Shown: positions 7,453 through 55,018 of the stretch, in pieces | Numbering within the stretch: the first letter of the stretch is position 1 | How the letters are laid out: each line of letters starts with the position of its first letter | Notes under the pieces: generated by a model | Told to the model about the DNA's origin: nothing | Databases searched by the model: none | The model's input: only the letters and a program-made list of their open reading frames with translations | Program-made: the position numbers and the translations under genes | NCBI GenBank assembly: GCA_049320885.1 | Contig: JBMORA010000001.1 | Span: forward strand, 402,622 to 466,621 | DNA: 64,000 nt | Direction: 5' to 3' | Origin: Thermodesulfobacteriota bacterium | GTDB lineage: Bacteria; Desulfobacterota; Desulfobacteria; Desulfobacterales; SURF-7

Positions 7453-9621
7453 ATGCAAAAAATATGGCGATTCGATTTTCAAAACCGCTGGTGCGCCGGG
7501 CTGCTCATGGTGATTCTGATCGTCGCGCTGGGATTCAGGTTTGCCGAACCCATTACGGACGGTGATCTGTTCTGGCAGATCGAATACGGACGCCAGTTGG
7601 TTGAAAACCGCACCCTGGTGCCCGACCATACATTGTATTCCTGGACCCCTTCCAGCAACGAAACCATTTATTGCGCCTGGATCTCGCAATTGTTTTTATA
7701 CTTCCTGGATCTCGCGGGAGGGCTGAAGTTGTTTTTCGTCCTGCGGTATCTATGCGTTCTGGCTTTTGTTCTGGCGGTGTGGTGGTTCGGCCATCGCCTG
7801 GGCATAGGGAAACACCCCCTTACGTTTGCCGTGATGCTGGCTGGAATATTGGCCGCCTATCTGGGCACCTATATCAAACCGGAACTATTTTCCCTGATTT
7901 TTTTCCTGGCGGCGGCCCTGGTCTATTTCGGCGTGAAAGCCTCCCTGTGGCCCGGAATCGGCTCCCGCCTGTTCTATGTCTATCCGATTCTGTTTCTTCT
8001 ATGGGTCAACAGCCACGGTGTGTTCATCTTCGGTCTCGCCCTTCTGGCCGTCCTGGTCCTGGCGGAAGGGGTGAATCGGAAACTGTCCCCAAAAATCGCC
8101 ATGGCCCGGAGGGATTACCATCGTTTCGCCGGTGCCGCGATTCTGAGCGCTGGCACCATTCTGCTGACGCCATATGGGTTCAGAATGCCCGGCCAGTTGC
8201 TGCCGATTCTGCTGTCCGGGGAGCAGGGAGATCAGAACCTGATGACGGTGGGGGCCCATCTTTCGACTTTTGCGGGCTCGTCCAGACTTCATACCTTTGA
8301 ATTCTTCATCCTGTTCGTCGCTCTGCTGGGCGGGATGTACTTGTATCACGGATTCCGACGGAAACAATGGGATTGGGGGATTTTGATTCCCAACCTTTTT
8401 CTGGCATACCTCTACACCCGGTTTCTGCGGACGACCTATTACTGGGCGCCCTTCTGGTGCTTCAGCATTCTGTACCTGCGACATCGTCTTTCAGCCGACG
8501 GAACGGCACACCGAACCCCCATGACGTTCATCATCCGGTTCCTGGCGGTTCTGTATGTCATTTTTCTTGCGGCGCGGGCGGTATACGATGTGCGCTACGA
8601 CAATTTCCCCACGCGCTGGGCCGGATTCGGCATTTCCTACTATAACCCCGTGGACGCCAGTGACTTTCTGAAACAATATCATCCCGGAGAAAGGCTTTAC
8701 AACAGTTATACGGCGGGAGGATATCTGCTCTACGATCTCTACCCGCTTTACAAGGTATTCTGCGATCCAAGATACTTTCCTTATAAGGACTGGTATCCGG
8801 AATACTATCGCTTCAACAACGGCCCCACCCCCATTGAGGAATTTCAAAAAAAATATCCATTCGATGTGGCGCTCATCGATTATCATACATCCACTGCGCT
8901 GATTTTGAAATTCCTGCAATCCAGGGCTTGGAAACCGATTTTTTACGGGCCTTTCGCCATGGTGTTCGCCCAGAAGGCTCTTCCCTTTCCGTCGGATTTG
9001 ACACAATTGGATCCGGCCCGGTTCGATGACCAGCTCCATAGCCTGACCCAGGCCCATCTGGTGTTCGCCGTGGCGGTTGAACTGGGTGATCTGGAAACCT
9101 CCGGTCGTGTTCTAAACGTCATCCGGAGAGAATTCAGGGGATATCCACGCTATGAACGGACACTGAGAGAATGCTCCCTGGCGCAGCAAGGGCTTACCGC
9201 CTTTAAAAACAAAGAGTATGAAAAAGCCTTCGCCGCGTTATACGATCTGGGATACCGGGATAACGCGCCCAGAACCAATTTCGCGCTGTTGTATCTCACC
9301 AATTACAAGGTCAAACAGCTAGTCGGAAAGAACGACCTCGAAGCAGCCCTCAAATTGATGGAGGCCATGCTGCGCCATCAGCCCGATTATGAGGACTTTT
9401 TGTTTAACGCAGGCGTTATCGGTTATCTGGTGGAAAAACACGCTCCCGCCAATCCGAATGCAGGCCTCATGCCCCAGATGGAACTGCTTTCCAGCAAGAC
9501 CGATTGGCAGCGACATTTCATGCGGCTGCTGAAACTGAACCCGAACCACCGGTATGCGGATCTGATCCGGCGGGTGCTGAACGGAGAAGATCTCCCGAAA
9601 CAGACCCCGTTGATCCTGTAA
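7453..9621 (+). CDS. Polytopic membrane protein, putative GT-C-fold glycosyltransferase with C-terminal helical/TPR-like region
   Basis: Many TM helices; acidic loop after TM1 (DGDLFWQIEYG); LWVNSHG; periplasmic YNSYTAGGYL...VFCDPR; first gene of a sugar operon. Confidence 0.6.
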   Translation: MQKIWRFDFQNRWCAGLLMVILIVALGFRFAEPITDGDLFWQIEYGRQLVENRTLVPDHTLYSWTPSSNETIYCAWISQLFLYFLDLAGGLKLFFVLRYLCVLAFVLAVWWFGHRLGIGKHPLTFAVMLAGILAAYLGTYIKPELFSLIFFLAAALVYFGVKASLWPGIGSRLFYVYPILFLLWVNSHGVFIFGLALLAVLVLAEGVNRKLSPKIAMARRDYHRFAGAAILSAGTILLTPYGFRMPGQLLPILLSGEQGDQNLMTVGAHLSTFAGSSRLHTFEFFILFVALLGGMYLYHGFRRKQWDWGILIPNLFLAYLYTRFLRTTYYWAPFWCFSILYLRHRLSADGTAHRTPMTFIIRFLAVLYVIFLAARAVYDVRYDNFPTRWAGFGISYYNPVDASDFLKQYHPGERLYNSYTAGGYLLYDLYPLYKVFCDPRYFPYKDWYPEYYRFNNGPTPIEEFQKKYPFDVALIDYHTSTALILKFLQSRAWKPIFYGPFAMVFAQKALPFPSDLTQLDPARFDDQLHSLTQAHLVFAVAVELGDLETSGRVLNVIRREFRGYPRYERTLRECSLAQQGLTAFKNKEYEKAFAALYDLGYRDNAPRTNFALLYLTNYKVKQLVGKNDLEAALKLMEAMLRHQPDYEDFLFNAGVIGYLVEKHAPANPNAGLMPQMELLSSKTDWQRHFMRLLKLNPNHRYADLIRRVLNGEDLPKQTPLIL

Positions 9622-9644
9622 GCCGTCTCCGGGAGAAAGCATGA

Positions 9645-10469
9645 TTGACAGATAAAGGAAAAATTGGAATACCGGAACTCATGAAATCCAACGCCTATGA
9701 AAAAAACTGGGGGCATTACGGGAAGGCCATCGCGGAAAAGAGGGCGACTCCGGAATGGGGAATCGTCCGGAAAGCGAGGGAAACCCACTGGGACGAATTT
9801 TTTTCCGTCAATGGAACCCATGCGGTTCTGGATGCCGGTTGCGGACTCGGAGATTATACGGTCTATGCATTGCGTAGTGGCGCCCGGGTCTGGGCCTTTG
9901 ATTACACTCCGGAAATGGTCATCGCCACCCGTGACAGGATATCGGAAAACGGATTGAAGGCCGAGGGGCTGTATGTGGGTTCCGTCACCGACATCCCCCA
10001 CGAAGACCGATCTTTTGATATTGTTTTCTGCCTCGCCGTGCTGGATCATCTGCCATTGCGGGAACGCCTGCAAGCCCGCAGCGAATTATACCGCGTCCTG
10101 AAACCGGGAGGATTCCTGTATCTGGACGTGCCGAACCGGCTGGCCTGGCATTGGCGTCTCGTCTTTTACGGCATGCGTTTTCTGAACCTGTATCCCGGGG
10201 GGAAAATCCATTTTTTCCTGCCCTGGGAACTGCAAGCCTTCATCCGCGGAGGGGGCTTTCAACCCTCGGGCAGTTTGGGGATGACTTTCTGTCCGCCCTT
10301 CAGCGGCATCTATACCACCGATATCCGGCGGCTCACGATTCTGCCGGACCATCTGATCCAACCCCTGGACGAGTTCTATCTCCGGATCGAGCAAACCTTT
10401 CGGCGCAAGCGTCTTTTCAAGCCGTTCTGCTGGCATTATTTTCTGAAGGCAAAAAAACCGAATGAATGA
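9645..10469 (+). CDS. Class I SAM-dependent methyltransferase
   Basis: VLDAGCGLG, SFDIV, RVLKPGG. Alternative start at ATG 9681. Confidence 0.9.
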   Translation: MTDKGKIGIPELMKSNAYEKNWGHYGKAIAEKRATPEWGIVRKARETHWDEFFSVNGTHAVLDAGCGLGDYTVYALRSGARVWAFDYTPEMVIATRDRISENGLKAEGLYVGSVTDIPHEDRSFDIVFCLAVLDHLPLRERLQARSELYRVLKPGGFLYLDVPNRLAWHWRLVFYGMRFLNLYPGGKIHFFLPWELQAFIRGGGFQPSGSLGMTFCPPFSGIYTTDIRRLTILPDHLIQPLDEFYLRIEQTFRRKRLFKPFCWHYFLKAKKPNE

Positions 10470-10514
10470 TTCATGATATGAGACCCCCCTCGACAACACC
10501 CGGAGCTTCTTTCC

Positions 10515-11252
10515 ATGGCCCTTGACCGCCGCCGATTTTCCATCCCCGCCAGGGAACTGTTGCGGGCGGTCCCGGCCTGGGAATGCCATCTGCATACGGA
10601 TATGACGGATGGGAGCGCCACCATCGAGGCCTGCGCCCGCAAGGCCTGCGATCTGGGATTGACCCGCATCATTTTTACCGAACACACCGAGGGTTGGAAA
10701 TCGTCCAGGCGGAACTGGTTTGACGCCTACCTGGTGGCGGTGCGAAAAACCGCAGAGGCCTATGCGGGCCGGATGGAAATTGTCGCCGGAATCGAGGCCC
10801 CGGCCCTGGATTTCAACCACACGCTGGATCTCGGCGGAGCCGTTCAGGCGGACATCCCGTTTATCCTCGGCGCGGCCCATCGCTATCCGGGCCTGAACGG
10901 CCGACGGGTGAAAGAACTGTCTCCGGCCGAATGCATTGAATTGGAGTACAAAACCCTGCTCTCCCTGGCCCGCAACCCCATGATTTCGTCCATCGCCCAC
11001 CTGGGAGGAACCTGTCGCCGGTATTGCAGCGAATTCCCCGACGACCTGACCGCCAAGGTGATTCGCACGGCCAGGGACAACGGAATCGCCATCGAGCTGA
11101 ATTCCAGATACCACGTTCCCTTATCTCCGATTCTGAGCATCTGTCTTCAGGAGAACGCCCATGTCACCATCGGCAGCGACGCGCATTCCCTCAACGAAAT
11201 CGGGACCGGATGTGCGGCAGTGGCAACCGCCCTGGAGGAGCTGAACGGATGA
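10515..11252 (+). CDS. PHP-domain phosphoesterase (histidinol-phosphatase-like)
   Basis: HLHT..TDG, FTEH, GIE, IAH, IELN, GSDAH. Confidence 0.88.
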   Translation: MALDRRRFSIPARELLRAVPAWECHLHTDMTDGSATIEACARKACDLGLTRIIFTEHTEGWKSSRRNWFDAYLVAVRKTAEAYAGRMEIVAGIEAPALDFNHTLDLGGAVQADIPFILGAAHRYPGLNGRRVKELSPAECIELEYKTLLSLARNPMISSIAHLGGTCRRYCSEFPDDLTAKVIRTARDNGIAIELNSRYHVPLSPILSICLQENAHVTIGSDAHSLNEIGTGCAAVATALEELNG

Positions 11253-34010: not shown

Positions 34011-34972
34011 TCCCTTAAATTGATCGCCCCGCAGCCGGCGATGTCCATCTCCAGACCGAGCTCCCGGGCATGACGGCGGGCCAGGGTCAGGCAGGATTCC
34101 ATTTCGCCGGTGAGCTGCGGCTGGAAGGCATCCACGTCGAACACCACATGATGCACACCCAGCCTGCCGGAGCGTTCCAGAAACGTGACGATATCACTTG
34201 GAATCGTGTTTTCCGGGAGCAGAATATACTTGGTTACCAGGGTTTTGCCGTGTTCCGCGTAACCGGCCAGGTTTTCCCAGACAGCTTCATATCGATCGCT
34301 TTGTTTCAGGTGGCGATAGGTCTCCCGGCTGCCGGCATCCACCGAGCAGATAATCGTCAGATTCGGCTGGCTGGCTTCGGCCATGGTCCGGTTGAAGATG
34401 GTTGCGTTGGTGGTCAGGGTCACCCAGGGGCCGTATTCCAGCAACATCAGCAGCAGGTCCTCGAAACCCGGCATGAGGGTCGGCTCCCCCCCGCCCCAGA
34501 AGATCTCCGCCTGGCGGGAAAGAAAACCGCTCTCCATGAATTGGCGGAAGACCGGCCCCAGGTCCAGGGGATGGTGCCCGAACTGAATGTCACGGTCATC
34601 ATTCCACCAGGCCGCGGCAATGCGCTCCTTTTGCAGATAACAATAGGCGCAGCGCAGGTTGCAACGGGTGAAATGACTGAGATTGATTTTCCGCAGGGTG
34701 AATTCGGGGCTGGTTTCATCGGCCGGACGAATTGTCAGCAAGGGGCATTCCCGGCATTGTTCCGCCTTGCCGGCCGCAAGGGCTTCCCGCAGCGCGCGCT
34801 TCGCCTGCTGGAAGCGCCCCACATCAAACGGACCGCCGTCATACGGGAACAGGAGCGGCCACCCGCAGGTTTCATGATGCACTACGCAACAGGCGTGCGC
34901 CGACCGGGGGGCGAAGGCGAGCCCGCCCTCGATCCATTCACAGCTCAAGCGTTCATGCATATCGCCCCGCAT
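34007..34972 (-). CDS. Radical SAM protein with N-terminal Cys motifs
   Basis: CNLRCAYC, GGGEPTL, TTNA, SVDAG; N-terminal CEW..CC..CRECP. Start uncertain. Confidence 0.85.
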   Translation of the reverse strand: MRGDMHERLSCEWIEGGLAFAPRSAHACCVVHHETCGWPLLFPYDGGPFDVGRFQQAKRALREALAAGKAEQCRECPLLTIRPADETSPEFTLRKINLSHFTRCNLRCAYCYLQKERIAAAWWNDDRDIQFGHHPLDLGPVFRQFMESGFLSRQAEIFWGGGEPTLMPGFEDLLLMLLEYGPWVTLTTNATIFNRTMAEASQPNLTIICSVDAGSRETYRHLKQSDRYEAVWENLAGYAEHGKTLVTKYILLPENTIPSDIVTFLERSGRLGVHHVVFDVDAFQPQLTGEMESCLTLARRHARELGLEMDIAGCGAINLRD

Positions 34973-35100
34973 TTCCGTTCCCCATTCCCGGTCCCTTCCT
35001 GTCTTTTCAAACCCTTTTGTTTCTATCCACGGCAATTCTTGAGTCCGGCTATTACCAAAAAATGAGGAAAATGCAAGCTTTTCAAGCACCCCGCCGGCCG

Positions 35101-35862
35101 TCACTCCGCAGTCGGCGCGCCCTCTTTTTTCCGGGATTCATACCAGGACACCATTTTCTGGGCCTCGCTGTTTCCTTTAACAGCCGCCTCTTGATACAAT
35201 TCCAGGGCCTTGTCATGGTCCTGCCGAAACACTCCCACTCCCTGCTGGTACAGGGACGCCAGGTGCACCATGGCCTCCGCATCCCCCTGGGCCGCTGCCT
35301 TGGCATACCATTCCCCGGCCATGACCGGATCCCGCGCCAGGCCGCCCGCGCCGTTATAATACATCACCCCCAGCGCGTCCTGCCCCCGGGGGTTTCCCTG
35401 GGCCGCCGATTTCTGGAAATACCCGAGGGCCTTCTCCGGGTCGGCCTGGATACCCGGCCCGCCCAGCAGATGCACCACACCGGCGAAATATTGTCCCACC
35501 GCCGTCCCCAATTCAGCGGATTTTTCAAACAATTCAAGCGCTTTCTTATCATCCTTGGCCAGCCCGGCAAGCCCCTGGTAATACATCACGCCCAGCCGAT
35601 TCATGGCAAACGCATTGCCCTTCTCCGCAGCCAGCGCATACCATTTTCGAGCGGTTGTCAAATCCCTGGCCAGCCCCCGGTCGCCTTCCTCATAGCATCT
35701 TCCCAGCTCAAACGCAGCCGGAGCGATCCCCGCCGCCGCCATTTTCCTCAGTTGCGCCATATCCACCGGGGCGGAACCTTCCCCGGCCAGACCCGGGGGA
35801 ACGCCCACCGCCAAAAACCACATCAGGACGGACATCAGGCTCCAGAACATATTTTTTTTCAT
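35101..35862 (-). CDS. Secreted Sel1-repeat protein
   Basis: Signal peptide; repeated LGVMYYxG...A..W/YF.KAA.QG units. Confidence 0.9.
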   Translation of the reverse strand: MKKNMFWSLMSVLMWFLAVGVPPGLAGEGSAPVDMAQLRKMAAAGIAPAAFELGRCYEEGDRGLARDLTTARKWYALAAEKGNAFAMNRLGVMYYQGLAGLAKDDKKALELFEKSAELGTAVGQYFAGVVHLLGGPGIQADPEKALGYFQKSAAQGNPRGQDALGVMYYNGAGGLARDPVMAGEWYAKAAAQGDAEAMVHLASLYQQGVGVFRQDHDKALELYQEAAVKGNSEAQKMVSWYESRKKEGAPTAE

Positions 35863-35994
35863 ATGAATAGATATGGTTGCCGTATTCAGCCCCCCTTGCC
35901 GGCGCAAACATTTTCCTTGCATAAAACACTCCTTTATGTCAGATATTCGGTCTCTACACGGTTGATCAGCAATCCATACATTTTGGAGGAACCT

Positions 35995-37047
35995 ATGCGT
36001 TACCACTCGTATTGCATGTATATTACGCTTTTCTTTCTACTCTGCGGCCTTGCCCCGGCAAGGTCGAGCGCCGATGCGCAAACCGCAAAGGAATTGTTCG
36101 ATGAAGCCGGCCGCCTTGCGGAAAAAGGCAACATGGAGCAGGCGCAGCCGTTATTTGATAAAGCGATCCAGCTGGATCCGTCCATGGCCGGCTTGGCCAA
36201 TTTCCGGCTGGGAACAGCCTTTGCCCAGCAACAAAATTTCACGGAAGCTGTGAAGTATTACGAAAAAGCGCTGGAGTCAAAGAAAAACGAGCCCATTATT
36301 TATATGAACATGGCCAATGCCTATCTCGCTCTGCATCGACCCGACAGGGCCGTCGATTGCTATAAACGGATAACGGAGTTGGATCCCAAAGCGGTTTGGG
36401 CTTATCACAATCTGGGTTCCCTCTATCTGCAGATGAAAGCATATCCTTCGGCCGTAGAAGCATTCAACAAGGTCATCGAAATCGATGCCAACACGTTCCG
36501 CACCGTGTACGAACAAATTGGCTATGCCTATCAGATGATGAGAAACTTCGACCAGGCCATCCTCGCCTACCAGAAGGCGATCAAGGTGAACCCCAAATCG
36601 TTCGCGGCCCATTACAATCTGGGCAAGTGCTACTTCGACCTCCGGGAAGCGGACAATGCCATCAAGTCGTATACCACGGCCATCGAGCTGGATCCGAAAA
36701 GCGCCGAGGCCATCACCAACCTGGGGCATGCATATTACTATAAATATACCATCTCGTTCGCCCGCAGCGACCTCGATCTGGCGTCAGCCGCCTTCAATCG
36801 CGCCCTGATGATGAAAAAGGACCTGGGTCAGGCCCTGTTCGGTCTTTCCCTGGTAAACCGGGAACGGGGGGAATATCAGACGGCCCTGGATCTCGCGGAG
36901 CGGGCCAAGCAATCCGGTCTCAAAGTGAGTTCAAAATATATCGAGAATCTGCAGGCCCGTATCGAAAAGAAACCCTTGGCGGATGATCCGGCGGCAAAGC
37001 CGGCCATCCCGCCCGACACCAAGGAAGACACCACCGGCAAGAGCTGA
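35995..37047 (+). CDS. Secreted TPR-repeat protein
   Basis: GGAGGA RBS; signal peptide; multiple TPRs (AYHNLG, AHYNLG, KAIxLDP). Confidence 0.9.
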   Translation: MRYHSYCMYITLFFLLCGLAPARSSADAQTAKELFDEAGRLAEKGNMEQAQPLFDKAIQLDPSMAGLANFRLGTAFAQQQNFTEAVKYYEKALESKKNEPIIYMNMANAYLALHRPDRAVDCYKRITELDPKAVWAYHNLGSLYLQMKAYPSAVEAFNKVIEIDANTFRTVYEQIGYAYQMMRNFDQAILAYQKAIKVNPKSFAAHYNLGKCYFDLREADNAIKSYTTAIELDPKSAEAITNLGHAYYYKYTISFARSDLDLASAAFNRALMMKKDLGQALFGLSLVNRERGEYQTALDLAERAKQSGLKVSSKYIENLQARIEKKPLADDPAAKPAIPPDTKEDTTGKS

Positions 37048-45899: not shown

Positions 45900-48005
45900 T
45901 TACCACTTGTATCGCAACATCACCTGGACGGTCCGGGGCGGCCCCTCGATGACCCGATACTGTCCCGGCTGGGTGTATTCCCGGTCCAACAGATTCCGAA
46001 CCGACAGGGTCAACTCCATGCTCGGAATCACGAAACGGTGGACCGTGGCATTCCAGTCCAACAGCCAGGCCTCCTTGCAGGTGATGACCGCTTCCTCCCG
46101 GGGATGGATCAGGTCCCGGGCAGAGATATACCGCAATATGCCCGTGGTGCTGAACCGCTGGACGGGTCGCCAGGTACCGATCAGATTGAACAATCGGTCA
46201 GGCCCCAGATCGTAGGGATAAACCAGTTCGACATAGTGTTTTTCGACGCTGCCGTCCGGCCGGATGAAATCATAATCGTTGTACAGGTATTTCTCATCCG
46301 GCCCGCTGTTGCTCAGCACCGTGAAATTGAGTTCCACATCCAGGGTGTCATGGGGATGCAGGCGGGTTTCGAATTCAAGCCCGTTGATTGTCTGCGTGTT
46401 GGGACTGCTCAAGCCCGCGTAGGGATCCTCCATCACATGATTGGCGATACGGTTGTTGAAGCCGCAGAGCGACATATCCAAAACCATGGAGGGCTTCCAG
46501 GCGACCTGGGCGCTGAGATTGGTGATTTTCTCCGGCTCGAGTTCGTCTTCTTCCCGCAGCTGGCTCGCATAGGGCGTGCGGAAAGCCGTTCCGTGAAACA
46601 GCTTGACCACCCACTGCCGGTTCGGCGACCAGACCAGCCCCGTATTGTAGCTGACGGCGTCATCGTATTCATCGTGGGCATCGTTCCGAAGCCCGAGCAG
46701 TATATCCACCGGCCCCATTTTGTGGACGTACTGACCGAAAACAGACACCAGGCGTGTATGATAATCCACCTGATCGAGTTCGGGCAGCAGGTTTTCGTTT
46801 TCCGGCCCCAAATAGTCCGGCAGATAGCCGTCCCAGATGAGAGCGTCATCGACCCGCCGGTCCCGGTAGGAAGCCCCGGCGGTCAGCAACCCCCGTCCCG
46901 CCATCAGGGTGTGATCGAAAATCAGTTCCGTGTAGAAACTGTTTTCATTCTGCTCGATGGTGCGATCGATGATATCGTATTCCGGATTCAGCATACTGTA
47001 GCTGGCGGTGAAACGAAGCGCGGAACGAAAGTCGAGACGCTGTTTGCTTTCCAGTTTCAGAAAACCGGAAGGTACTCTTTCCGTTTCGCGCCAGGTATAG
47101 TCCCCTCCCTGTTCCGCCAGGGCATAGGGATGCCGGTAATCGGATATCCGGCCGGAAAGGGAAAAGCGTTCGCCGTGGGAAACCCGGCCGGCAGCCTCCA
47201 CATACTGGGAATCTCCGACGCTTGCCGTACCGTATCGGTTCTCGGGAGGAACCGCCTCTTCCAGATCGCCCCAGAATCGGACGACATTGACATCGCCGTC
47301 CTCCTCCTGCTGCTGATGGTGGGCGCTGACCGAAAAAAATGCATCCCAGTTTCCCGAAAGGAATCCGGCGTTGGCATAGGCGCCCACCGGATGACCGGGC
47401 TCCCCGAAATAGCCGCCCACCTCGCCGCCCTGCACATCCCGGCCGGTGAGGGGGACAATATTGACCACCCCGGCAAAAGCGTCCGGACCCCACAGGACCG
47501 AACCCGGTCCGCTGACGATTTCGATCCGCTTCACCGATTCGAGCGACATCTCCCTGTCCAGAAATTGCAGCGATTTGGATACCTCCGAACCCATCGGCAC
47601 CGTATCGTATAAACAAAGGATGGAATTGGAGACGCCGCGCATATAGGCTTGCGTGCCGCTTTCGCGGCCGGCCATGTGGAATCCAGGCACCAGCGCCAAG
47701 GCTTCACCGAGGGTGGAAACTCCGCGTTCACGGATCTGTTCCCTTGTGACCACGTGGGCCACAGCCGGCACCTGCCAGGCGCTTTCCTCCCGGCGCGTGG
47801 CAATGGACAAAACGTCCAGCGACTCTCCAACAAACATGAGCAACGTATCGCTTTCGGCCGCTCCATCCGGCTTCACTTCGCCTTCAGCCCCGGCTCCCGC
47901 TCCCGGCCGGATCAATACGACCATCAGACAGCAGCACAGGAAAAGATTGCCCACCCGATGAAACAGCCTTGCGATTCCGCGCAGGATAAAATCGTTTTTT
48001 TTCAT
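45900..48005 (-). CDS. TonB-dependent outer membrane receptor
   Basis: Plug motif RIEIVSGPGSVLWGPDAFAGVVNI; TAFRTP, LEPEK, VRNLLD; C-terminal YKW. Confidence 0.92.
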   Translation of the reverse strand: MKKNDFILRGIARLFHRVGNLFLCCCLMVVLIRPGAGAGAEGEVKPDGAAESDTLLMFVGESLDVLSIATRREESAWQVPAVAHVVTREQIRERGVSTLGEALALVPGFHMAGRESGTQAYMRGVSNSILCLYDTVPMGSEVSKSLQFLDREMSLESVKRIEIVSGPGSVLWGPDAFAGVVNIVPLTGRDVQGGEVGGYFGEPGHPVGAYANAGFLSGNWDAFFSVSAHHQQQEEDGDVNVVRFWGDLEEAVPPENRYGTASVGDSQYVEAAGRVSHGERFSLSGRISDYRHPYALAEQGGDYTWRETERVPSGFLKLESKQRLDFRSALRFTASYSMLNPEYDIIDRTIEQNENSFYTELIFDHTLMAGRGLLTAGASYRDRRVDDALIWDGYLPDYLGPENENLLPELDQVDYHTRLVSVFGQYVHKMGPVDILLGLRNDAHDEYDDAVSYNTGLVWSPNRQWVVKLFHGTAFRTPYASQLREEDELEPEKITNLSAQVAWKPSMVLDMSLCGFNNRIANHVMEDPYAGLSSPNTQTINGLEFETRLHPHDTLDVELNFTVLSNSGPDEKYLYNDYDFIRPDGSVEKHYVELVYPYDLGPDRLFNLIGTWRPVQRFSTTGILRYISARDLIHPREEAVITCKEAWLLDWNATVHRFVIPSMELTLSVRNLLDREYTQPGQYRVIEGPPRTVQVMLRYKW

Positions 48006-48072
48006 AACCGATTTGATTCCCATCCAAAACGACCCGCATCCGTCATTCGCGATTGCCGATCCGTCATATCCC

Positions 48073-49416
48073 TCATCCAAGATTTTTCAGGAACACCCGG
48101 AGCTTTGCCCGGGTCAGCCCCAGCAATTTGGCCGCCTGGGTCTGGTTGTTGCCGGTCATCCGCAGGGCCTGATGGACCATTTCCTTGTTGAAATCCTCCA
48201 GACAAATCCCCCCCGGTGGCAGCTGGAAGTTCCGGGAACCCGGGTCGGAAGCACCAGCATTGTTCAAAAAAGAAAGCGTTTCGGCCGTAATGGCTTCCCG
48301 GTCCGATCCGATGATCATGGCCCGCTCCATGGCATTGGCGAGTTCCCGGACATTACCCGGCCACCGGTAGGCCGTCAGCATGCGCCCCGCGCCGTCGGTC
48401 AATTCCATGGCCCGGCCTTCTCCGAGGAGATTGAGAAAATGCTGGCACAGGGGCAGAATATCCTCCGTCCGTTCCCGCAGGGGAGGCAGTTCAATGGGCA
48501 CCACATTGATGCGGTAAAACAAGTCCTGCCGAAAACGGCCGTTCCGGACCGATTCCATCAGGTTTTGATTGGTGGCGCATATGAAACGTGCATCCACGGG
48601 TATTTCCTCGTTTCCTCCCACGCGCCGGACGGTTTTTTCCTGGAGGGTCCGCAGCAGCTTGGCCTGGGCTTCCAGCGGCAGGTCGCCGATCTCGTCCATC
48701 AACAGAGTGCCCTGGGAGGCGAATTCAAATTTCCCCTTGGTTCTTCGTTCCGCCCCCGTGAAAGCGCCTTTTTCATATCCGAACAATTCCGATTCCACCA
48801 AGGAAGCCGGGATGGCCGCGCAGTTGATGGGCACGAAACGACCGTTTCTCCGTCCGCTCTGGCTGTGTATGTATCGGGCCAACAATTCCTTGCCGGTCCC
48901 GGACTCGCCTTGAATCATCACCACCGAGTCGCTGCGGGCCACCTTGGCCGCCAGTTCCATCACGGACTGCATCGCCTTGGAGCGATAGACGATGTCGCCG
49001 GCGCCGGCCACCAGGGAAAGCTCCCGCTTCAGTTCCTTGTTTTCCTGTATCACTCTGGAAAAGTTCAAGGTTCTTTCAATAGTGAGCTGGATGCGGTCCT
49101 CCTCGAACGGTTTGGTGATATAATCGGAGGCCCCCATGCGCATGGATTCCACCGCCGAGTCCACGGTGGCGAACGCAGTGATGAAAACGAAGGGACACGG
49201 CAGGTCTTCCGCCTTGACCTTCTGCAGCAGTTCGACGCCGCTCATGCGGGGCATCTTGATATCGCTGATCACCATGTCATAAGGTGTTTCCTTGATCTTC
49301 GCATATGCCTCCAACCCGTCCGAGGCCTGTTCCGTTGTATGACCGTTTCGCTGCAGCAACAGGGCCAGGAGATGACGCATTTTTTCTTCATCATCGACGA
49401 TCAGTATGTGAGCCAT
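48073..49416 (-). CDS. sigma54-dependent response regulator (NtrC family)
   Basis: REC domain; GESGTGKE, ESELFGYEKGAFTGA, WPGNVREL; Fis-type HTH NQTQAAKLLG. Confidence 0.96.
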   Translation of the reverse strand: MAHILIVDDEEKMRHLLALLLQRNGHTTEQASDGLEAYAKIKETPYDMVISDIKMPRMSGVELLQKVKAEDLPCPFVFITAFATVDSAVESMRMGASDYITKPFEEDRIQLTIERTLNFSRVIQENKELKRELSLVAGAGDIVYRSKAMQSVMELAAKVARSDSVVMIQGESGTGKELLARYIHSQSGRRNGRFVPINCAAIPASLVESELFGYEKGAFTGAERRTKGKFEFASQGTLLMDEIGDLPLEAQAKLLRTLQEKTVRRVGGNEEIPVDARFICATNQNLMESVRNGRFRQDLFYRINVVPIELPPLRERTEDILPLCQHFLNLLGEGRAMELTDGAGRMLTAYRWPGNVRELANAMERAMIIGSDREAITAETLSFLNNAGASDPGSRNFQLPPGGICLEDFNKEMVHQALRMTGNNQTQAAKLLGLTRAKLRVFLKNLG

Positions 49417-49512
49417 TGTCTTCACTCCTTCCAATCGGATATCTTTCCCCCCGCCTTCCCCCCTCTGCGTCGACCGTGGGCCGCAACCGGCTTCTTGCCG
49501 CATGGTGCATGA

Positions 49513-50934
49513 CTATCTTCCCTGCTGCAGGGGAATGTCCACCGTGAAAAGCGCCCCACCCGAATCGGCATCCTCCACCAGGATGAACCCTCCATGGGAT
49601 TTGAAAACCTGGGAGGCGAACGCCAGCCCCAGGCCCGTGCCTTTGGCTCGTGTTGTGAAGAACGGTTCAAAGATTTTTCCCTTGTCATCCGGACGAATGC
49701 CACCGCCGTTGTCCTCGATCTGCACCCGCCAGCGGTCGAAATCGACTTCCGCCTTGATCCGCACATATCCGTTCTCCCCCGCCGCCTGGCAGGCATTTTC
49801 GATGATGTTGCCGAAAGCCCGGACCATCAAATCACGGTCCGCATGACGGATCGCCGGCCGTTCCGGCAGATCGAGATTCAACTGCAGGGCGGACTGATGG
49901 TGCAGCATTTCAAAACGCCGGAATACATCATCCAGCATCTGATTGAGATCAACGGTCCGGAAAACCGGTTTCGTCGGTCTGGCGAACTGCAGAAAGGCCT
50001 CGATCATGCTGTTAAGGCGGCGGATTTCATCCTCGATATAACCCACCAGGGTCTGCTCGCTGCTCAGGTTGTAATCGCGCTTGATCATATCCAGGGAAGT
50101 TTTGATAATGGCCAGCGGATTTTTCACCTCATGGGCGATCATCAGGGAAAATTTTCCCATTTCCGCCAGGGATTTCTGCTTCATCATTTCCCGGTTCACC
50201 CGGGCAAGATCCTCCTGGCTTTCCTTCAAGGAATCCAGCATGGCGTTAAACGATTTCGCCAGCGCCCTGGTTTCCGGCAATTTACCGGGCCGGGCTCTCA
50301 ATTCGAAGTCCCCCCGGCCGATGTGCATGGCGGTGGCGGTCAGTTGTTTCAATTCGGAACCGATGGGCCGGGACACGAAATAAAACACCAGGCCGGCAAT
50401 CAGTGCCAGACCCAGGGACATCCAGATGAATCTGCGCGCGATATCGGCCATCAGCAGATCGATTCCATGGGTGCTGAAGTGGATGCGCACCTTGCCGATA
50501 TGGTCCACGATCGCGGTCCGCACGGGTTCGAAAGGGGTACGCGCCACGACTTTCCCGCCGGAAAATACGATATTCTCGTCGCTCGCCCGCTTGAAAACCA
50601 CCGGCGTCTCCACCAGCGACAGGGGGCCTTCGGCGGATCGGGACAAATCCACCAGCGTATTGTTGTGATTATCCAGAATCAGCACCCGCGCCACATCCTT
50701 TTCCCCCAGCAGGTTATGAGCCAGATTTTTCAGTCCCTCCTTGTCATTGATCAGGACCCCCACTTCCGAATTCAGGGCCAGGTACCGGGCCAGAAACGCT
50801 ATCCGGTCCTCGAAGCGCTCATGCATGAAACGGCTGGTGATCCGCACCCCCACGATGCCGAAAATGGCCGTGGAAGCGCCGATCAGCACAAAAGCCGCCA
50901 GCAGAAAGCGCGTATGGATACCGGGACTTTTCAC
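49513..50934 (-). CDS. HAMP-domain sensor histidine kinase
   Basis: Two TM helices, HAMP, AHEVKNPL, NIIENA, DNGGGI, FEPFFTTRAKGTGLGL. Confidence 0.95.
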   Translation of the reverse strand: MKSPGIHTRFLLAAFVLIGASTAIFGIVGVRITSRFMHERFEDRIAFLARYLALNSEVGVLINDKEGLKNLAHNLLGEKDVARVLILDNHNNTLVDLSRSAEGPLSLVETPVVFKRASDENIVFSGGKVVARTPFEPVRTAIVDHIGKVRIHFSTHGIDLLMADIARRFIWMSLGLALIAGLVFYFVSRPIGSELKQLTATAMHIGRGDFELRARPGKLPETRALAKSFNAMLDSLKESQEDLARVNREMMKQKSLAEMGKFSLMIAHEVKNPLAIIKTSLDMIKRDYNLSSEQTLVGYIEDEIRRLNSMIEAFLQFARPTKPVFRTVDLNQMLDDVFRRFEMLHHQSALQLNLDLPERPAIRHADRDLMVRAFGNIIENACQAAGENGYVRIKAEVDFDRWRVQIEDNGGGIRPDDKGKIFEPFFTTRAKGTGLGLAFASQVFKSHGGFILVEDADSGGALFTVDIPLQQGR

Positions 50935-51926
50935 GGCTTCTCCTCTTCCTTCTCGCCGCCGGCCTGCCCTTCAAAGGGAATGTGCAACGCCTCCAGCACC
51001 TGATGGTTCAGCAACACCTTGAAGGCGGGAACGGCCAGATGGCAAGGGCGCCCTTCCAGCCGGTCCAGCCCCATGGCTGCCGCCTGTTTCCCGATGGCCT
51101 GGTAATCGCACACCAGGCCCAGCGCCGCGCCGCTGTCGGTAAAAAACCGATTGTATCCCAGCACCGCCACGTTGCTGGCAATGGCTTCCTTGATCAGGAA
51201 CAGGATAATGCTCTCGGAAATCACCGTGTGGTCCGGAATCACCCACAAGGCGTTGATGTCCTTGCGGTGTTTTTTAAAAACCGCCAGGATGTCGCTGCGG
51301 GATTTCACCGTGAGGGGGACGATGTCGATACCGTGATCCCGGGCCGCCGCCGCCGCGCCGGCCGCGAAATCACTGTTGTTGGCGGGGTCATAGATCAGGC
51401 CGATCCGCCTGGTCTTGGGCAATTTCCGGCCGATCTCCCTGACCTGGATTTGGGCCGGGATGTCCAACGGGATTCCGCACCACCCCTTGGCTTCCGGCAC
51501 GATCTTTTCCGGATGCAGCACCATGGCGAAAACCTTGGGAACCGTTTCATCCGGAAAGGTTTTCCAGATCAACTCCATGGCCTCCGGACCGACGGCGATC
51601 AGCAGATGGAAACGCTCCTTTTTCAGCCGGCGGATCAAAACCGTGTGATCCGGGTCCGTCTCCGGTTCCAGAAACGACACGTCCAACGACATATGGTCTT
51701 TCTGTTCGAAAGAAGATTGGATTCCCTGGAGTGCATCCAGATACGGCCTGATTTTCTGGGAAACCACCACCGCCGCGCTGGAAGGCGGCGGATTTTCCGC
51801 AGGCAAGACCCGGCCGGCCGCCATTAGCGTCACCATCAGACTCGCCATCAGGACCGGCAACAGACCGACGCCCGTCCTTCGCGGTGCTGCAAAAACCGCT
51901 TTCTCCTTTTGGCCGCCTGGTCTCAT
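50931..51926 (-). CDS. Periplasmic ABC-type substrate-binding protein (no transporter adjacent)
   Basis: LIAVGPEA, RIGLIYDP, ALWVIPD, GA...DYQAIGKQAA; overlaps the histidine kinase start by 4 nt. Confidence 0.85.
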   Translation of the reverse strand: MRPGGQKEKAVFAAPRRTGVGLLPVLMASLMVTLMAAGRVLPAENPPPSSAAVVVSQKIRPYLDALQGIQSSFEQKDHMSLDVSFLEPETDPDHTVLIRRLKKERFHLLIAVGPEAMELIWKTFPDETVPKVFAMVLHPEKIVPEAKGWCGIPLDIPAQIQVREIGRKLPKTRRIGLIYDPANNSDFAAGAAAAARDHGIDIVPLTVKSRSDILAVFKKHRKDINALWVIPDHTVISESIILFLIKEAIASNVAVLGYNRFFTDSGAALGLVCDYQAIGKQAAAMGLDRLEGRPCHLAVPAFKVLLNHQVLEALHIPFEGQAGGEKEEEKP

Positions 51927-51937
51927 CGATTGCTGGA

Positions 51938-54292
51938 TTATCGTCCGGTTTCGATCCTGTTTCTGAAATCCCTGGTTACATCATCCACCGCGCTCAAATC
52001 GGCGATGACCCGCGGAGTGATCAGCACGATCATTTCGTTGCGACTGGTTTTATTCGTGTTTTTCCCGAACAGATAGCCGAGCACGGGGATGTCTTTCAAA
52101 TACGGCACCCCGGAATCCCCTTCCGATGTGTCATTTTTGATCAGGCCGCCGATGACGATGGTCTGGTTATGCCCCACGGTCAGATTCGTGGAAACGCTGC
52201 GCTGGAAAAAGGAAGGGTATGCGACGCCGCCCACCAGTACATCGCCGGCCACGTCGCTGACCTCCTGGTTGACGGTCAGGCTCACCAGACCGTTGTCGTT
52301 GATATGGGGCGTGACCGACAGGATGATGCCGGTGTTGCGATACTGGATATTGGTCTGGACCATGGACTCATTGCTCAGGTTGGTGGTGTTGTACACGGCG
52401 CTGGCCACCGGAACTTCCGTGGAGATATTGATTTTCGCCTCCTTGTCGTTGGAAGCCAGGACGGTGGGCGAGGAGAGCACATTGACCCTGTTTTCCTTGG
52501 CAAGGGCCGACAGGGTCGCCGACCAGCGCGCGGTCTGCCCCATCACGTAGGTGAGGCCGTCCACTCCCATGCTGGCGCTCAAGACTTCGGTGCTCGGACC
52601 GCCTTTGCCGCTGACATACCGCCACTCGACACCAAATTCCTCCGAATCGGACAGCGTGATATCGGCGATCATGACTTCGATCAACACCTGGCGCGGCAGG
52701 ACATCCAGGGATTCCAGCATGCGTTGAATAATCTGATAATCCGAAGGGATCGCTTCGATAATCAAAGCGTTGCGGGAGAGATCCGGTGTTATTTTGATCG
52801 GTGCCCGGAGGGTGCCGGAGCCGATTTCGCCGAATTCCCGCGGGGTCTGGGGTTTGGAGCCGCCGGCCGCCGGCTTGGCGATGGCAAAGGGATTGGGGGA
52901 GGTTTTGACGGTTTCCGCTTCCTGAGCGCCGCCGGCTTTCTTGGCGCCGGCCTTTTCCTGCCCGGTTTTGGTCTCGGAAGCGGTCTTGAATATTCCGTCC
53001 AGCAGGCCGGCCAATTCCCCGGCCTGGCCGTTCTTGACCTTGTAGACATACAATTGGGGGGCGACGGTCTCATTGGGGCCGTCCAGGGTCTTGAGGAGCT
53101 GGGCCACCTTTTCGATGACCCGGGGCTGCCGGCTCATCACCAGCAGCATGCCCAGCCGGTCGATGGGAATCAACCGGACATCCGTCTCGGAAGCACTGTA
53201 ATAGACCGGCAGGGCGTCCTGCAGCACCTTGATGATGTCCTCCATCGTGTTGTATTCGATCCGGAAAAACCGGTGGCCGACCCCGGCGAACATGTCCAGA
53301 TCGAAACTTTCCACCAGCTTCAAGGCCTTGGCGACATTGACCCCCTTGTCCACCAGCAGGATGGAATTGGAATTATCCGGGGCCACCATGGTTCCCTCGG
53401 AGGAGATGAACGGCGTCAGGATTTTCATCATTTCCGCGGAATGGATATTCTTCAGGGGAATGATCTGCATGAGCACCCGCTCCCCGGGAGGCAACGCCTG
53501 GCTTTCCGCCTCCTGCCGGGTCAGCATCGGCATCCGGGCCGCTTCCTTGAGGCTCGTGATGTTATATACCGCCCCTTCCTTGACGGCCGTCAATCCGTTG
53601 GTCTCGAGGATTTGAAAAAAAACCGGGAACAAATCCCGGGGGCTGATGGTGCCGGCGGTATGCAGGGTCACCCGCCCGCGCACAGCGGGGTCCACGATAT
53701 ACGAGATTTTCAGGATATCCGCCATGGTCCGGATGACTTCATACAGATCGGCGTCATCAAAATTGAGCGTCACTTTTTCCTTTTCGGATTTCGCGGCCTC
53801 GGGGGCGGCTTCCTTGCCCCTTGCCTCCGGGGATGTCATACCGGCCCCCGGCTGTTCCTGTTTCGTAGCCGGTGCTGTCCGCCGGATGTCCGCGGGCTCT
53901 TCGCTCTCTATTGCCGGTGCTTCGGGGGCCGGCTCCGCTTTCACCGGAGCGGGCGCCGGACGCCGGTCCGCACTTGTTTCCTTCCGGGCGGCAGCCGGTT
54001 TTGGGGTGGCGGCGGGCTCCTTTTCCGATTTTCCGGAAGGCGGGCCGGCTTCCGCGGGCTGCTTCATCATGCCGAAGGGCGTGCTGACGATCCGGTATGT
54101 TTTTCCGTTTTCCGTCACCAGTTTGGGAAAATCCTTCTGCAGCATCTCTCCGCCGGCCGGCCCGGAGGCGACCCCGGCGCTGCCGGATTCCGCCCGGCCA
54201 TCCCCCGGACCCAGAAAGCACATACACACAAAGGCCGCAATACCCGGCACCATCCTACAGCATCTGCCGATTGATCTTGTAATTCGCATCAT
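51938..54292 (-). CDS. gspD: Type II secretion secretin
   Basis: TLNFDDADL (N0 domain), LDVLPRQVLIEV, NVLSSP, TGIILSVTPHIN, VPYLKDIPVLGYLF. Confidence 0.95.
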   Translation of the reverse strand: MMRITRSIGRCCRMVPGIAAFVCMCFLGPGDGRAESGSAGVASGPAGGEMLQKDFPKLVTENGKTYRIVSTPFGMMKQPAEAGPPSGKSEKEPAATPKPAAARKETSADRRPAPAPVKAEPAPEAPAIESEEPADIRRTAPATKQEQPGAGMTSPEARGKEAAPEAAKSEKEKVTLNFDDADLYEVIRTMADILKISYIVDPAVRGRVTLHTAGTISPRDLFPVFFQILETNGLTAVKEGAVYNITSLKEAARMPMLTRQEAESQALPPGERVLMQIIPLKNIHSAEMMKILTPFISSEGTMVAPDNSNSILLVDKGVNVAKALKLVESFDLDMFAGVGHRFFRIEYNTMEDIIKVLQDALPVYYSASETDVRLIPIDRLGMLLVMSRQPRVIEKVAQLLKTLDGPNETVAPQLYVYKVKNGQAGELAGLLDGIFKTASETKTGQEKAGAKKAGGAQEAETVKTSPNPFAIAKPAAGGSKPQTPREFGEIGSGTLRAPIKITPDLSRNALIIEAIPSDYQIIQRMLESLDVLPRQVLIEVMIADITLSDSEEFGVEWRYVSGKGGPSTEVLSASMGVDGLTYVMGQTARWSATLSALAKENRVNVLSSPTVLASNDKEAKINISTEVPVASAVYNTTNLSNESMVQTNIQYRNTGIILSVTPHINDNGLVSLTVNQEVSDVAGDVLVGGVAYPSFFQRSVSTNLTVGHNQTIVIGGLIKNDTSEGDSGVPYLKDIPVLGYLFGKNTNKTSRNEMIVLITPRVIADLSAVDDVTRDFRNRIETGR

Positions 54293-54295
54293 AAG

Positions 54296-55018
54296 CTACT
54301 GTTTCTTCCGTTTCATCATACCGAACGGCGTACTGATCGTTTCATACTGCTCGTCCGTTCCCGAATCCTTTTTGCGCCGGCTGGCGATGCCGGCATCCTT
54401 CTTCGGTTCCGGCTTGGGTTTCTTTTCCGGCGGTGTCGCCACGACAACGGGTTTTGCCGGTTGACGGGCGGCCGCCGGTTGCCGGATCTTGCTCTGTTCG
54501 TACAGTCCCACGCGAAACTTCTTTCGGCCTTCGTCCGTGAAGACGACTCCATCCGCGAAGATCTGCTCAACCCGCAACTGTCCCACCCGATCCCCCCGCC
54601 TGACCCACAGGGAATGATCGGCGGCGGATTTCGCCTCGGGATTGTTGATCAGGGCCGCTTCGTAACCATCCAGAATCACGACGCCGAAAAGCAGGATGTC
54701 CCGTCCCTCGATCCGGGGCTTGTCTTCTTCCGGCAGGGCTTCGATCCCGGGTTCCGGGGCCTGGTATTCCTCCCGCTCCGGTGAAAACAGGTTTTTCCCC
54801 ACCACATCCTGAAAGGCGCTCTGGGGCTGCGGGCGTTCCCCGGGAAAGCCGCCGGCGGGAACGGACGGCGTCTCCCTTTCCAGGGCGCGGTTTTCCGAAG
54901 GCCGCTCCGGCTGGCGGATGGGCAAGGGATCGTGCCGCCATACCTGAACGGTCTTGTGGATAAAAAAAACACTCAGAACGGCCAGGCCGATATTGATGTA
55001 GGTGATCTTGGAAATCAT
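54296..55018 (-). CDS. gspC: Type II secretion GspC-like protein (TM + HR domain, no PDZ)
   Basis: N-terminal TM helix, KNLFSPER, LFGVV...ALI...VRRGD.V...V.QI; located before gspD. Confidence 0.65.
   Translation of the reverse strand: MISKITYINIGLAVLSVFFIHKTVQVWRHDPLPIRQPERPSENRALERETPSVPAGGFPGERPQPQSAFQDVVGKNLFSPEREEYQAPEPGIEALPEEDKPRIEGRDILLFGVVILDGYEAALINNPEAKSAADHSLWVRRGDRVGQLRVEQIFADGVVFTDEGRKKFRVGLYEQSKIRQPAAARQPAKPVVVATPPEKKPKPEPKKDAGIASRRKKDSGTDEQYETISTPFGMMKRKKQ

Follow-up and report, generated by a model that had tools for sequence, protein, structure and literature searches.

Our analysis of a 64,000-nucleotide stretch of a Thermodesulfobacteriota bacterium genome (SURF-7; assembly GCA_049320885.1, contig JBMORA010000001.1, positions 402,622 to 466,621; hereafter the window) revealed a conserved element in a type II secretion system (T2SS), a predicted beta-hairpin built around the peptide TPFG that occurs on two adjacent components, GspC and the secretin GspD. 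The element nearly always forms the last residues of a GspC that lacks a PDZ domain and, in many lineages, one or two more copies are found in GspD before the N0 domain. It is probably a small docking clip carried on the tethers of both proteins, and we put the probability that its copies share a ligand at roughly 0.65. The ligand would be a single conserved component of the cell envelope.

In the window, the C-terminal end of GspC is YETISTPFGMMKRKKQ (Y225 to Q240, nucleotides 54346–54299, minus strand; TAG stop at 54298–54296), and GspD carries YRIVSTPFGMMKQ (Y66 to Q78 of its 784-amino-acid form, nucleotides 54097–54059, minus strand) between its signal peptide and N0. Translation of the open reading frames located both peptides where a first interpretation of the window, hereafter the sequence-only reading, had placed them. 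Nine residues, Y and STPFGMMK, are identical in the two copies. The codons differ synonymously at Y, S, P, G and K, as that reading had claimed, and thus at five of the nine shared residues; two of the other four are Met, which has a single codon. A choice of codon is possible at seven shared residues, and five of these seven differ. With a nucleotide identity of 27/42 over 14 aligned codons, these differences indicate that conservation lies at the level of the peptide, with no sign of recent DNA copying. The two copies also have the same residue at every variable core position which, alongside the five codon differences, points to a common constraint rather than to recent gene conversion. A resemblance without function, due to chance or to a neutral local duplication, would suit the close spacing of the copies, which lie merely 249 nt apart in adjacent genes (gspC, 54296–55018, and gspD, 51938–54292, both on the minus strand, with gspD starting 4 bases downstream of gspC). 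However, this explanation is at odds with the different codons at five of the seven shared residues that have a choice, with the uniqueness of the motif in the genome and with the retention of both copies in orthologues of many families, and the conservation data described below exclude it.

Specificity was examined within and beyond the genome. A six-frame scan of the 5.61-Mb genome found TPFGMMK twice, in GspC and GspD, while the looser pattern Y..[IVL].TPFG occurred three times, the third in a frame of 59 residues. A 17-column hidden Markov model (HMM) of the motif, built from 206 instances, was compared with 45,327 frames of at least 60 amino acids and recovered GspC (E 1.8e-8) and GspD (E 1.1e-5), the next match having an E value of 2.3. 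The proteome scan suggested by the sequence-only reading therefore gave significant matches in GspC and GspD only. As TPFGMMK occurs only twice and the HMM is significant only for these two open reading frames, the match between the peptides is more than chance. In five further whole genomes the profile matched eight times at E≤0.01, each time within GspC or the GspD next to it, although it missed the GspD copy of a relative from the same genus that was directly visible. A degenerate DNA pattern for Y-E-x-I-x-T-P-F-G-x-x-K was also scanned over one genome per species for 185,579 species. It matched 37 loci, 24 at the ends of GspC and one in a GspD extension, all of these in Desulfobacterota-type records; the remainder comprised seven loci of Paenibacillus or Cohnella and five scattered in unrelated frames, against around a dozen chance matches expected from the information content of the pattern. 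Neither the six genomes scanned whole nor the DNA pattern in one genome of each of the 185,579 species placed the motif in a candidate secreted protein.

The seven Paenibacillus and Cohnella records share a large beta-rich protein (>520 amino acids in the part fetched) which ends in the look-alike Y-E-x-I-x-TPFG-x-x-K-R-L-V-K, 8–9 residues from the C-terminus and without a preceding low-complexity linker. This may be convergence or coincidence. No significant Pfam family was found in these proteins, the only match being DUF3426 at E 0.0083, below the cut-off.

The motif was found to be conserved among relatives, with the consensus [YF]-E-x-[IV]-x-T-P-F-G-x-[IVM]-K-[RQ]-[KR]-[KI]-K and acidic residues in front. 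Of 401 genomes of the class, 195 were matched by a profile from six GspC orthologues (E≤1e-5). Approximately 65 of the matches were strong and full length (E≤1e-24); the weaker ones covered the N-terminal two thirds only and had open reading frames of about 300 amino acids, like the PDZ-type paralogue. Among the best 30 loci of this search, one was interrupted by a contig end, and the motif formed the end of 28 of the 29 complete GspC orthologues (26 with TPFG and 2 with TPLG). When 1.84 billion representatives of 50 % identity clusters were searched exhaustively with a profile, 4373 GspC matches were obtained at E≤1e-3, of which 298 reached E≤1e-30, compared with five matches from a word-based homologue search. 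The motif was present in 132 of the best 150 of these representatives (129 with a single and 3 with a double copy), nearly always 10–13 residues before the end. For the secretin, TPFG lay between the signal peptide and N0 in 78 of the best 120 of 331 GspD relatives, one of them with two copies, a fraction inflated by a query that itself held the motif and by the choice of the best 120. Names among the relatives include Desulfobacteraceae, Desulfococcaceae, Desulfonema, Desulfatitalea, Desulfosudis, Syntrophaceae and Syntrophales, and this T2SS subtype was seen here only in Desulfobacterales- and Syntrophales-type bacteria. Neighbours of GspC in the ESM Atlas were unnamed ('hypothetical protein'), alongside some XpsN and T2SSC clusters. 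The sequence-only reading had treated absence from orthologues as the mark of a one-off duplication; the motif is conserved in orthologues of both GspC and GspD, and the shared peptide is therefore not a one-off duplication.

Structure prediction with AlphaFold2 suggests that the element is a self-contained beta-hairpin of around 16–22 residues, in which acidic residues lead into a [YF]-E-x-[IV]-x strand and the T-P-F-G turn connects this to a basic x-[IVM]-K-R-[KR]-[KI]-K strand, so that its charge runs from acidic to basic. Both copies were predicted as hairpins on flexible tethers, in agreement with the short hairpin of the sequence-only reading, with a predicted local distance difference test score (pLDDT) of 81–88 in GspC and 65–80 in GspD and with low-confidence linkers around them. 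The mean pLDDT was 78.5 for the GspC model (150-row alignment) and 72.6 for the GspD model (108-row alignment), in which the meander that holds the motif is followed by N0–N3 and the secretin domain. Two in-frame starts are available for gspD, giving 784 amino acids or, from a Met at 54253, 771 amino acids. In the 771-amino-acid form the meander strands are residues 45–48, 51–58 and 61–66 (add 13 for the longer form), with pLDDT values below 50 on both sides of the block. Covariation is consistent with the predicted hairpin. The highest mutual information among the GspC copies links positions -1 and +4, which flank the turn, although such values are inflated by relatedness and many position pairs beat all shuffles. 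Positions -4 and +7 of the GspD copies pair as E-R (27), R-Q (11), K-Q (5) and E-Q (5), which fits a cross-strand register.

PilP is a homology region (HR) protein that binds the N0 domain of secretins. The folded part of GspC is of this type, the best Foldseek match of its HR domain being PilP itself (3jc8_Pa, E 7.2e-4), with further matches to the HR domain of GspC 3oss_C (target TM-score 0.79, root-mean-square deviation (rmsd) 2.8 over 74 columns), to GspB 4wfw (rmsd 1.5 over 67 columns) and to the PulC HR domain 6hcg_e. No Pfam family was matched by the 240-amino-acid protein at E≤0.01, including T2SSC PF11356, T2SSB PF16537 and PDZ, and the NCBIfam model GspC_delta NF041515 scored 25.7 bits, below its cut-off of 150. 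Beyond the HR domain, the AlphaFold2 model and Pfam gave a linker and a 14-residue hairpin, with no PDZ or coiled-coil domain. The transmembrane helix and HR fold, without PDZ, therefore identify an HR protein in the position of GspC, and the absence of PDZ that had been read from the sequence was borne out by Pfam, AlphaFold2 and Foldseek. PilP (also 2ivw and 2y4y) has the same HR domain, but it is a lipoprotein of pilus systems, according to PDB entry titles, whereas the window protein is encoded among the T2SS genes GspE–GspM. The HR fold is likewise that of classical GspC (EpsC, PulC and OutC; 3oss and 6hcg), for which the available text of PMC3169554 describes two kinds of C-terminal domain, PDZ and coiled-coil. 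Unlike these proteins, the window GspC has a 16-residue hairpin at that place and T2SSC PF11356 is unmatched.

The most invariant stretch of the GspC family is not the hairpin but N-L-F-S-P-x-R (54773–54793 in the window), between the transmembrane helix and the HR domain. Its residues F78 and R82 are invariant in 29 sequences, and a short helix is predicted nearby (residues 66–74).

The distribution of copies bears upon what the hairpins might bind. In 44 distinct loci, with the motif detected by pattern within 1.5-kb flanks, the numbers of GspC and GspD copies were 1+0 in 25 loci, 1+1 in 12, 2+0 in 3, 1+2 in 1, 0+1 in 2 and 0+0 in 1. Copy number that varies between GspC and GspD is consistent with a single ligand, as are the likeness of same-genome copies described below and the agreement of the window's two copies at all variable core positions. 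The hairpin could instead act within the machine, docking on a secretin N-domain, the GspC HR ring, a neighbouring hairpin or GspL/M; it would provide a second GspC–GspD contact beside that of HR with N0, and the secretin copy would hold the site in cis until GspC arrives. We regard this as unlikely. The motif was found only in a pair of proteins that are binding partners already, its near-invariance would suit a conserved surface of the machine and, in the inferred geometry, the tethers would be long enough for both copies to reach N1–N3. Copies from the same genome also resemble each other slightly more than shuffled pairs do (13 pairs gave 60 identities over 13 variable positions and shuffles 51.7, with 1.7 % of the shuffles reaching 60; the excess lies at positions -6, -1 and +5), a weak signal from few and phylogenetically non-independent pairs. 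However, pairing between hairpins is not general, as 25 of the 44 loci have the GspC copy only, and a second GspC–GspD contact has no precedent in the accessible portions of PMC3169554 and PMC9239104. A complex prediction for GspD residues 25–580 (771-amino-acid form, N-terminal extension to N3) with the GspC tail (residues 190–240) gave an ipSAE of 0.00 in both runs, which were made without controls and weigh neither for nor against a contact. The sequence-only reading had proposed a docking motif with which both proteins bind one partner, whether substrate, chaperone or each other, possibly in place of PDZ. The hairpin, its conservation and its location at the PDZ position support this proposal in part, whereas mutual binding of GspC and GspD as a general rule falls with the 25 loci.

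The hairpins may also be asked to take over the task of the PDZ domain, catching a secreted protein or an adaptor and thereby setting the specificity of secretion, which we consider decidedly unlikely. The hairpin does stand where the PDZ or coiled-coil domain of classical GspC stands (PMC3169554, in its available text), and a PDZ-type GspC is encoded by a paralogous T2SS of the same genome. A reference title in the accessible part of PMC3169554 further assigns specificity to OutC's PDZ domain and OutD's N-terminal region, and the fixed four-gene block downstream of gspD would fit a dedicated and conserved task. Nevertheless, no other protein in the six genomes has a matching or obviously complementary element, and TPFG with its following Lys is invariant over hundreds of diverged clusters, which speaks for a conserved rather than a variable ligand.

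The reading that we favour is that of a tethered docking clip for one conserved envelope ligand, additional copies on GspC or GspD adding avidity. By its position, the hairpin points to a ligand in the cell wall or envelope no less strongly than to a substrate or chaperone. The available text of PMC9239104 describes OutB (GspB) of Dickeya as a transmembrane helix, a linker and an N0-binding HR domain, followed by a polyampholyte C-terminal extension of 28 residues which cross-links to peptidoglycan and whose loss reduces secretion. It also places wall-binding domains directly before N0 in LspD of Legionella (SPOR) and in PilQ (AMIN), and reports from cryo-tomography that the cell wall surrounds the N-terminal part of secretins. 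The window GspC resembles GspB/OutB of Dickeya dadantii (4wfw) in its single transmembrane helix, variable linker, HR beta-sandwich and short charged C-terminal extension. It differs in being encoded in the gspC position directly upstream of gspD, in having no Pfam T2SSB match and in its extension, where a linker of some 50 residues bears a TPFG hairpin that is sharply conserved and recurs in the secretin. GspD shares with LspD and PilQ an extra element between its N-terminus and N0 but, in contrast to their folded domains, this is a mini-hairpin within a low-confidence linker of around 130 residues, and wall binding is hypothetical here. A wall anchor is favoured because the hairpin sits where the OutB extension and the wall domains of LspD and PilQ sit, runs from acidic to basic and is nearly invariant. 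Near-invariance over diverse genomes fits a universal ligand better than varied cargo. The first-choice ligand would be peptidoglycan, in the layer that encircles the secretin's N-terminal part. The HR domain of GspC would hold N0, its expected docking site by analogy with the systems covered in the available text of PMC3169554, and the GspC tail, together with the tether of the secretin itself, would pin the channel to the wall. That the hairpin is a minimal peptidoglycan or envelope anchor of this kind is put forward tentatively, at clearly less than even odds.

Several points weigh against this reading. To our knowledge, a 16-residue hairpin is not among the known wall-binding folds. The argument for peptidoglycan is one of positional analogy, and PMC9239104 itself, in its available part, calls the mechanism of the OutB extension unclear. 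A separate GspA/GspB pair is encoded on another contig of this genome (C29), so that wall anchoring could already be supplied. The motif is missing from 18 of the 150 GspC representatives, several of which end in an NPF element and a basic tail, and from 42 of the best 120 GspD relatives. Lastly, the GspD signal peptide in the window (54193–54292) contains Cys residues, but a loose pattern found no canonical lipobox there, and the N-terminus of this GspD may therefore not be anchored in the outer membrane.

In this subtype the GspD N-terminus usually carries a predicted lipid anchor, as the loose pattern detected a putative lipobox in 62 of 120 GspD relatives, with the motif copy about 45 residues past the predicted lipid-modified Cys. 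Many of these relatives thus resemble the liposecretin HxcQ of Pseudomonas aeruginosa, a self-piloted secretin (Viarre et al. 2009, as cited in the available text of PMC12475490), in a putative lipobox Cys, a long linker before N0 and about 20 residues after the Pfam Secretin domain. Unlike HxcQ, their linker bears a conserved hairpin and the window signal peptide lacks the canonical lipobox; lipidation and self-piloting of the HxcQ type are putative. This likeness, and the predicted distance from the lipid-modified Cys to the motif, would accord with a biogenesis signal, a hairpin recognised by Lol or Bam factors or a periplasmic chaperone in the targeting or assembly of the secretin and without a role in the working machine. 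We consider this very improbable, since the main and far more constant site of the motif is the C-terminus of GspC, an inner-membrane protein that needs no outer-membrane targeting, and the 42 GspD relatives mentioned above do without the motif.

The features of the two genes are compiled in Table 1. Pfam assigned Secretin_N and Secretin (residues 596–763) to GspD in addition to N0, and its best solved relative was 5wln (E 2.6e-51). Solved GspDs do not align across the N3 insertion, which is about 50 residues long. It contains [NTS]PF in 76 of 108 full-length GspD relatives and full TPFG in 7 of 120, and this clade-specific insertion, with NPF or TPFG, may be a third and degenerate site of the motif class. 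In relative G395 (complete), the gspD position reads as two open reading frames of 316 and 405 amino acids instead of one of about 760 (8322–10525 of the locus).

Table 1. Coordinates in the window of gspC, gspD and their predicted parts (AF2, AlphaFold2)
Feature	Position	Strand	Basis
GspC-like gene, 240 amino acids: transmembrane helix, linker, HR domain, linker, C-terminal hairpin; no PDZ	54296..55018	-	Open reading frame
GspC N-terminal transmembrane helix, residues 4–28	54935..55009	-	AF2 helix, pLDDT >90
GspC HR beta-sandwich, residues 102–172	54503..54715	-	AF2 pLDDT 90–96; Foldseek
GspC second linker, K/P/A-rich, residues 175–222	54353..54496	-	AF2 block, pLDDT 50–68
GspC C-terminal hairpin motif YETISTPFGMMKRKKQ, residues 225–240	54299..54346	-	AF2 strands 225–230 and 233–238, pLDDT 81–88; stop adjoins
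Secretin GspD, 784 amino acids, long N-terminal extension	51938..54292	-	TIGR02517 type_II_gspD, 429.6 bits (cut-off 351.35)
GspD N-terminal extension beta-meander, residues 58–79, holding YRIVSTPFGMMKQ (54059–54097)	54056..54121	-	AF2
GspD P/A/E-rich linker from hairpin to N0, residues 80–172 (about 95 residues)	53777..54055	-	AF2 pLDDT 35–42
GspD N0 domain, residues 176–245	53558..53767	-	Pfam PF21305, E 3.5e-18
GspD N3 insertion, residues 441–492, with NPF element at 52886–52894	52817..52972	-	AF2 pLDDT <50

The two genes belong to a complete T2SS operon on the minus strand of the window, encoding GspE, F, G, H, I, J, K, L (PilM-PilN type), M (T2SSM_b/PilO-type), C and D, and the adjacency of gspC and gspD is also kept in related loci. 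Tightly packed downstream of gspD (45900–51926, minus strand) are genes for a PF04392 ABC_sub_bind-like periplasmic protein, a HAMP histidine kinase, a sigma-54 response regulator and a TonB-dependent receptor. This four-gene block followed gspD in the window and in all five relatives fetched, and the T2SS subtype may be linked to a sensing and uptake module of its own. The only TPR protein in a Pfam scan of the window's open reading frames lies at 34732–37044, around 17 kb away.

Elsewhere in the genome, a second, classical T2SS was found on contig C18 (68000–86000), with GspJ, K, L, M, GspC, GspD and GspE and an adjoining TPR protein. Its GspC (314 amino acids) has T2SSC and PDZ domains, and its GspD (708 amino acids) has N0 from residue 63, without a long extension. 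Contig C29 (30500–38500), away from both T2SS clusters, pairs a GspA-like protein (AAA_22 and PG_binding_1, 660 amino acids) with a GspB-like protein (T2SSB, 232 amino acids); T2SSB PF16537 matched in the genome on contigs C29 (33.8 bits) and C12 (20.6 bits).

A broader form of the envelope reading treats the TPFG hairpin as a minimal envelope-binding module of about 16 residues, a mobile short linear motif that hops between the tethers of GspC and GspD and possibly the N3 loop, which we hold to be rather unlikely. If true, no smaller cell-wall or ligand anchor would be known from any trans-envelope machine, and the secretin would be ringed by up to dozens of flexible clips for one ligand.

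In summary, no description of a TPFG motif in GspC or a secretin was found in the literature searched, which included Desulfobacter, Deltaproteobacteria and Desulfobacterota, and the element would add to PDZ and coiled-coil a third kind of GspC C-terminal domain, a tethered mini-hairpin that is also carried by the secretin. The GspC family concerned is large (298 clusters at 50 % identity, E≤1e-30) and wholly unannotated and, at 16 residues on a free C-terminus, the element lends itself unusually well to experiment. Knowing its ligand would reveal by what means a T2SS whose GspC lacks PDZ is held in the envelope, or receives its cargo, in anaerobic relatives of sulfate reducers, and would help to explain why wall-binding and specificity elements recur at these two positions of secretin systems.

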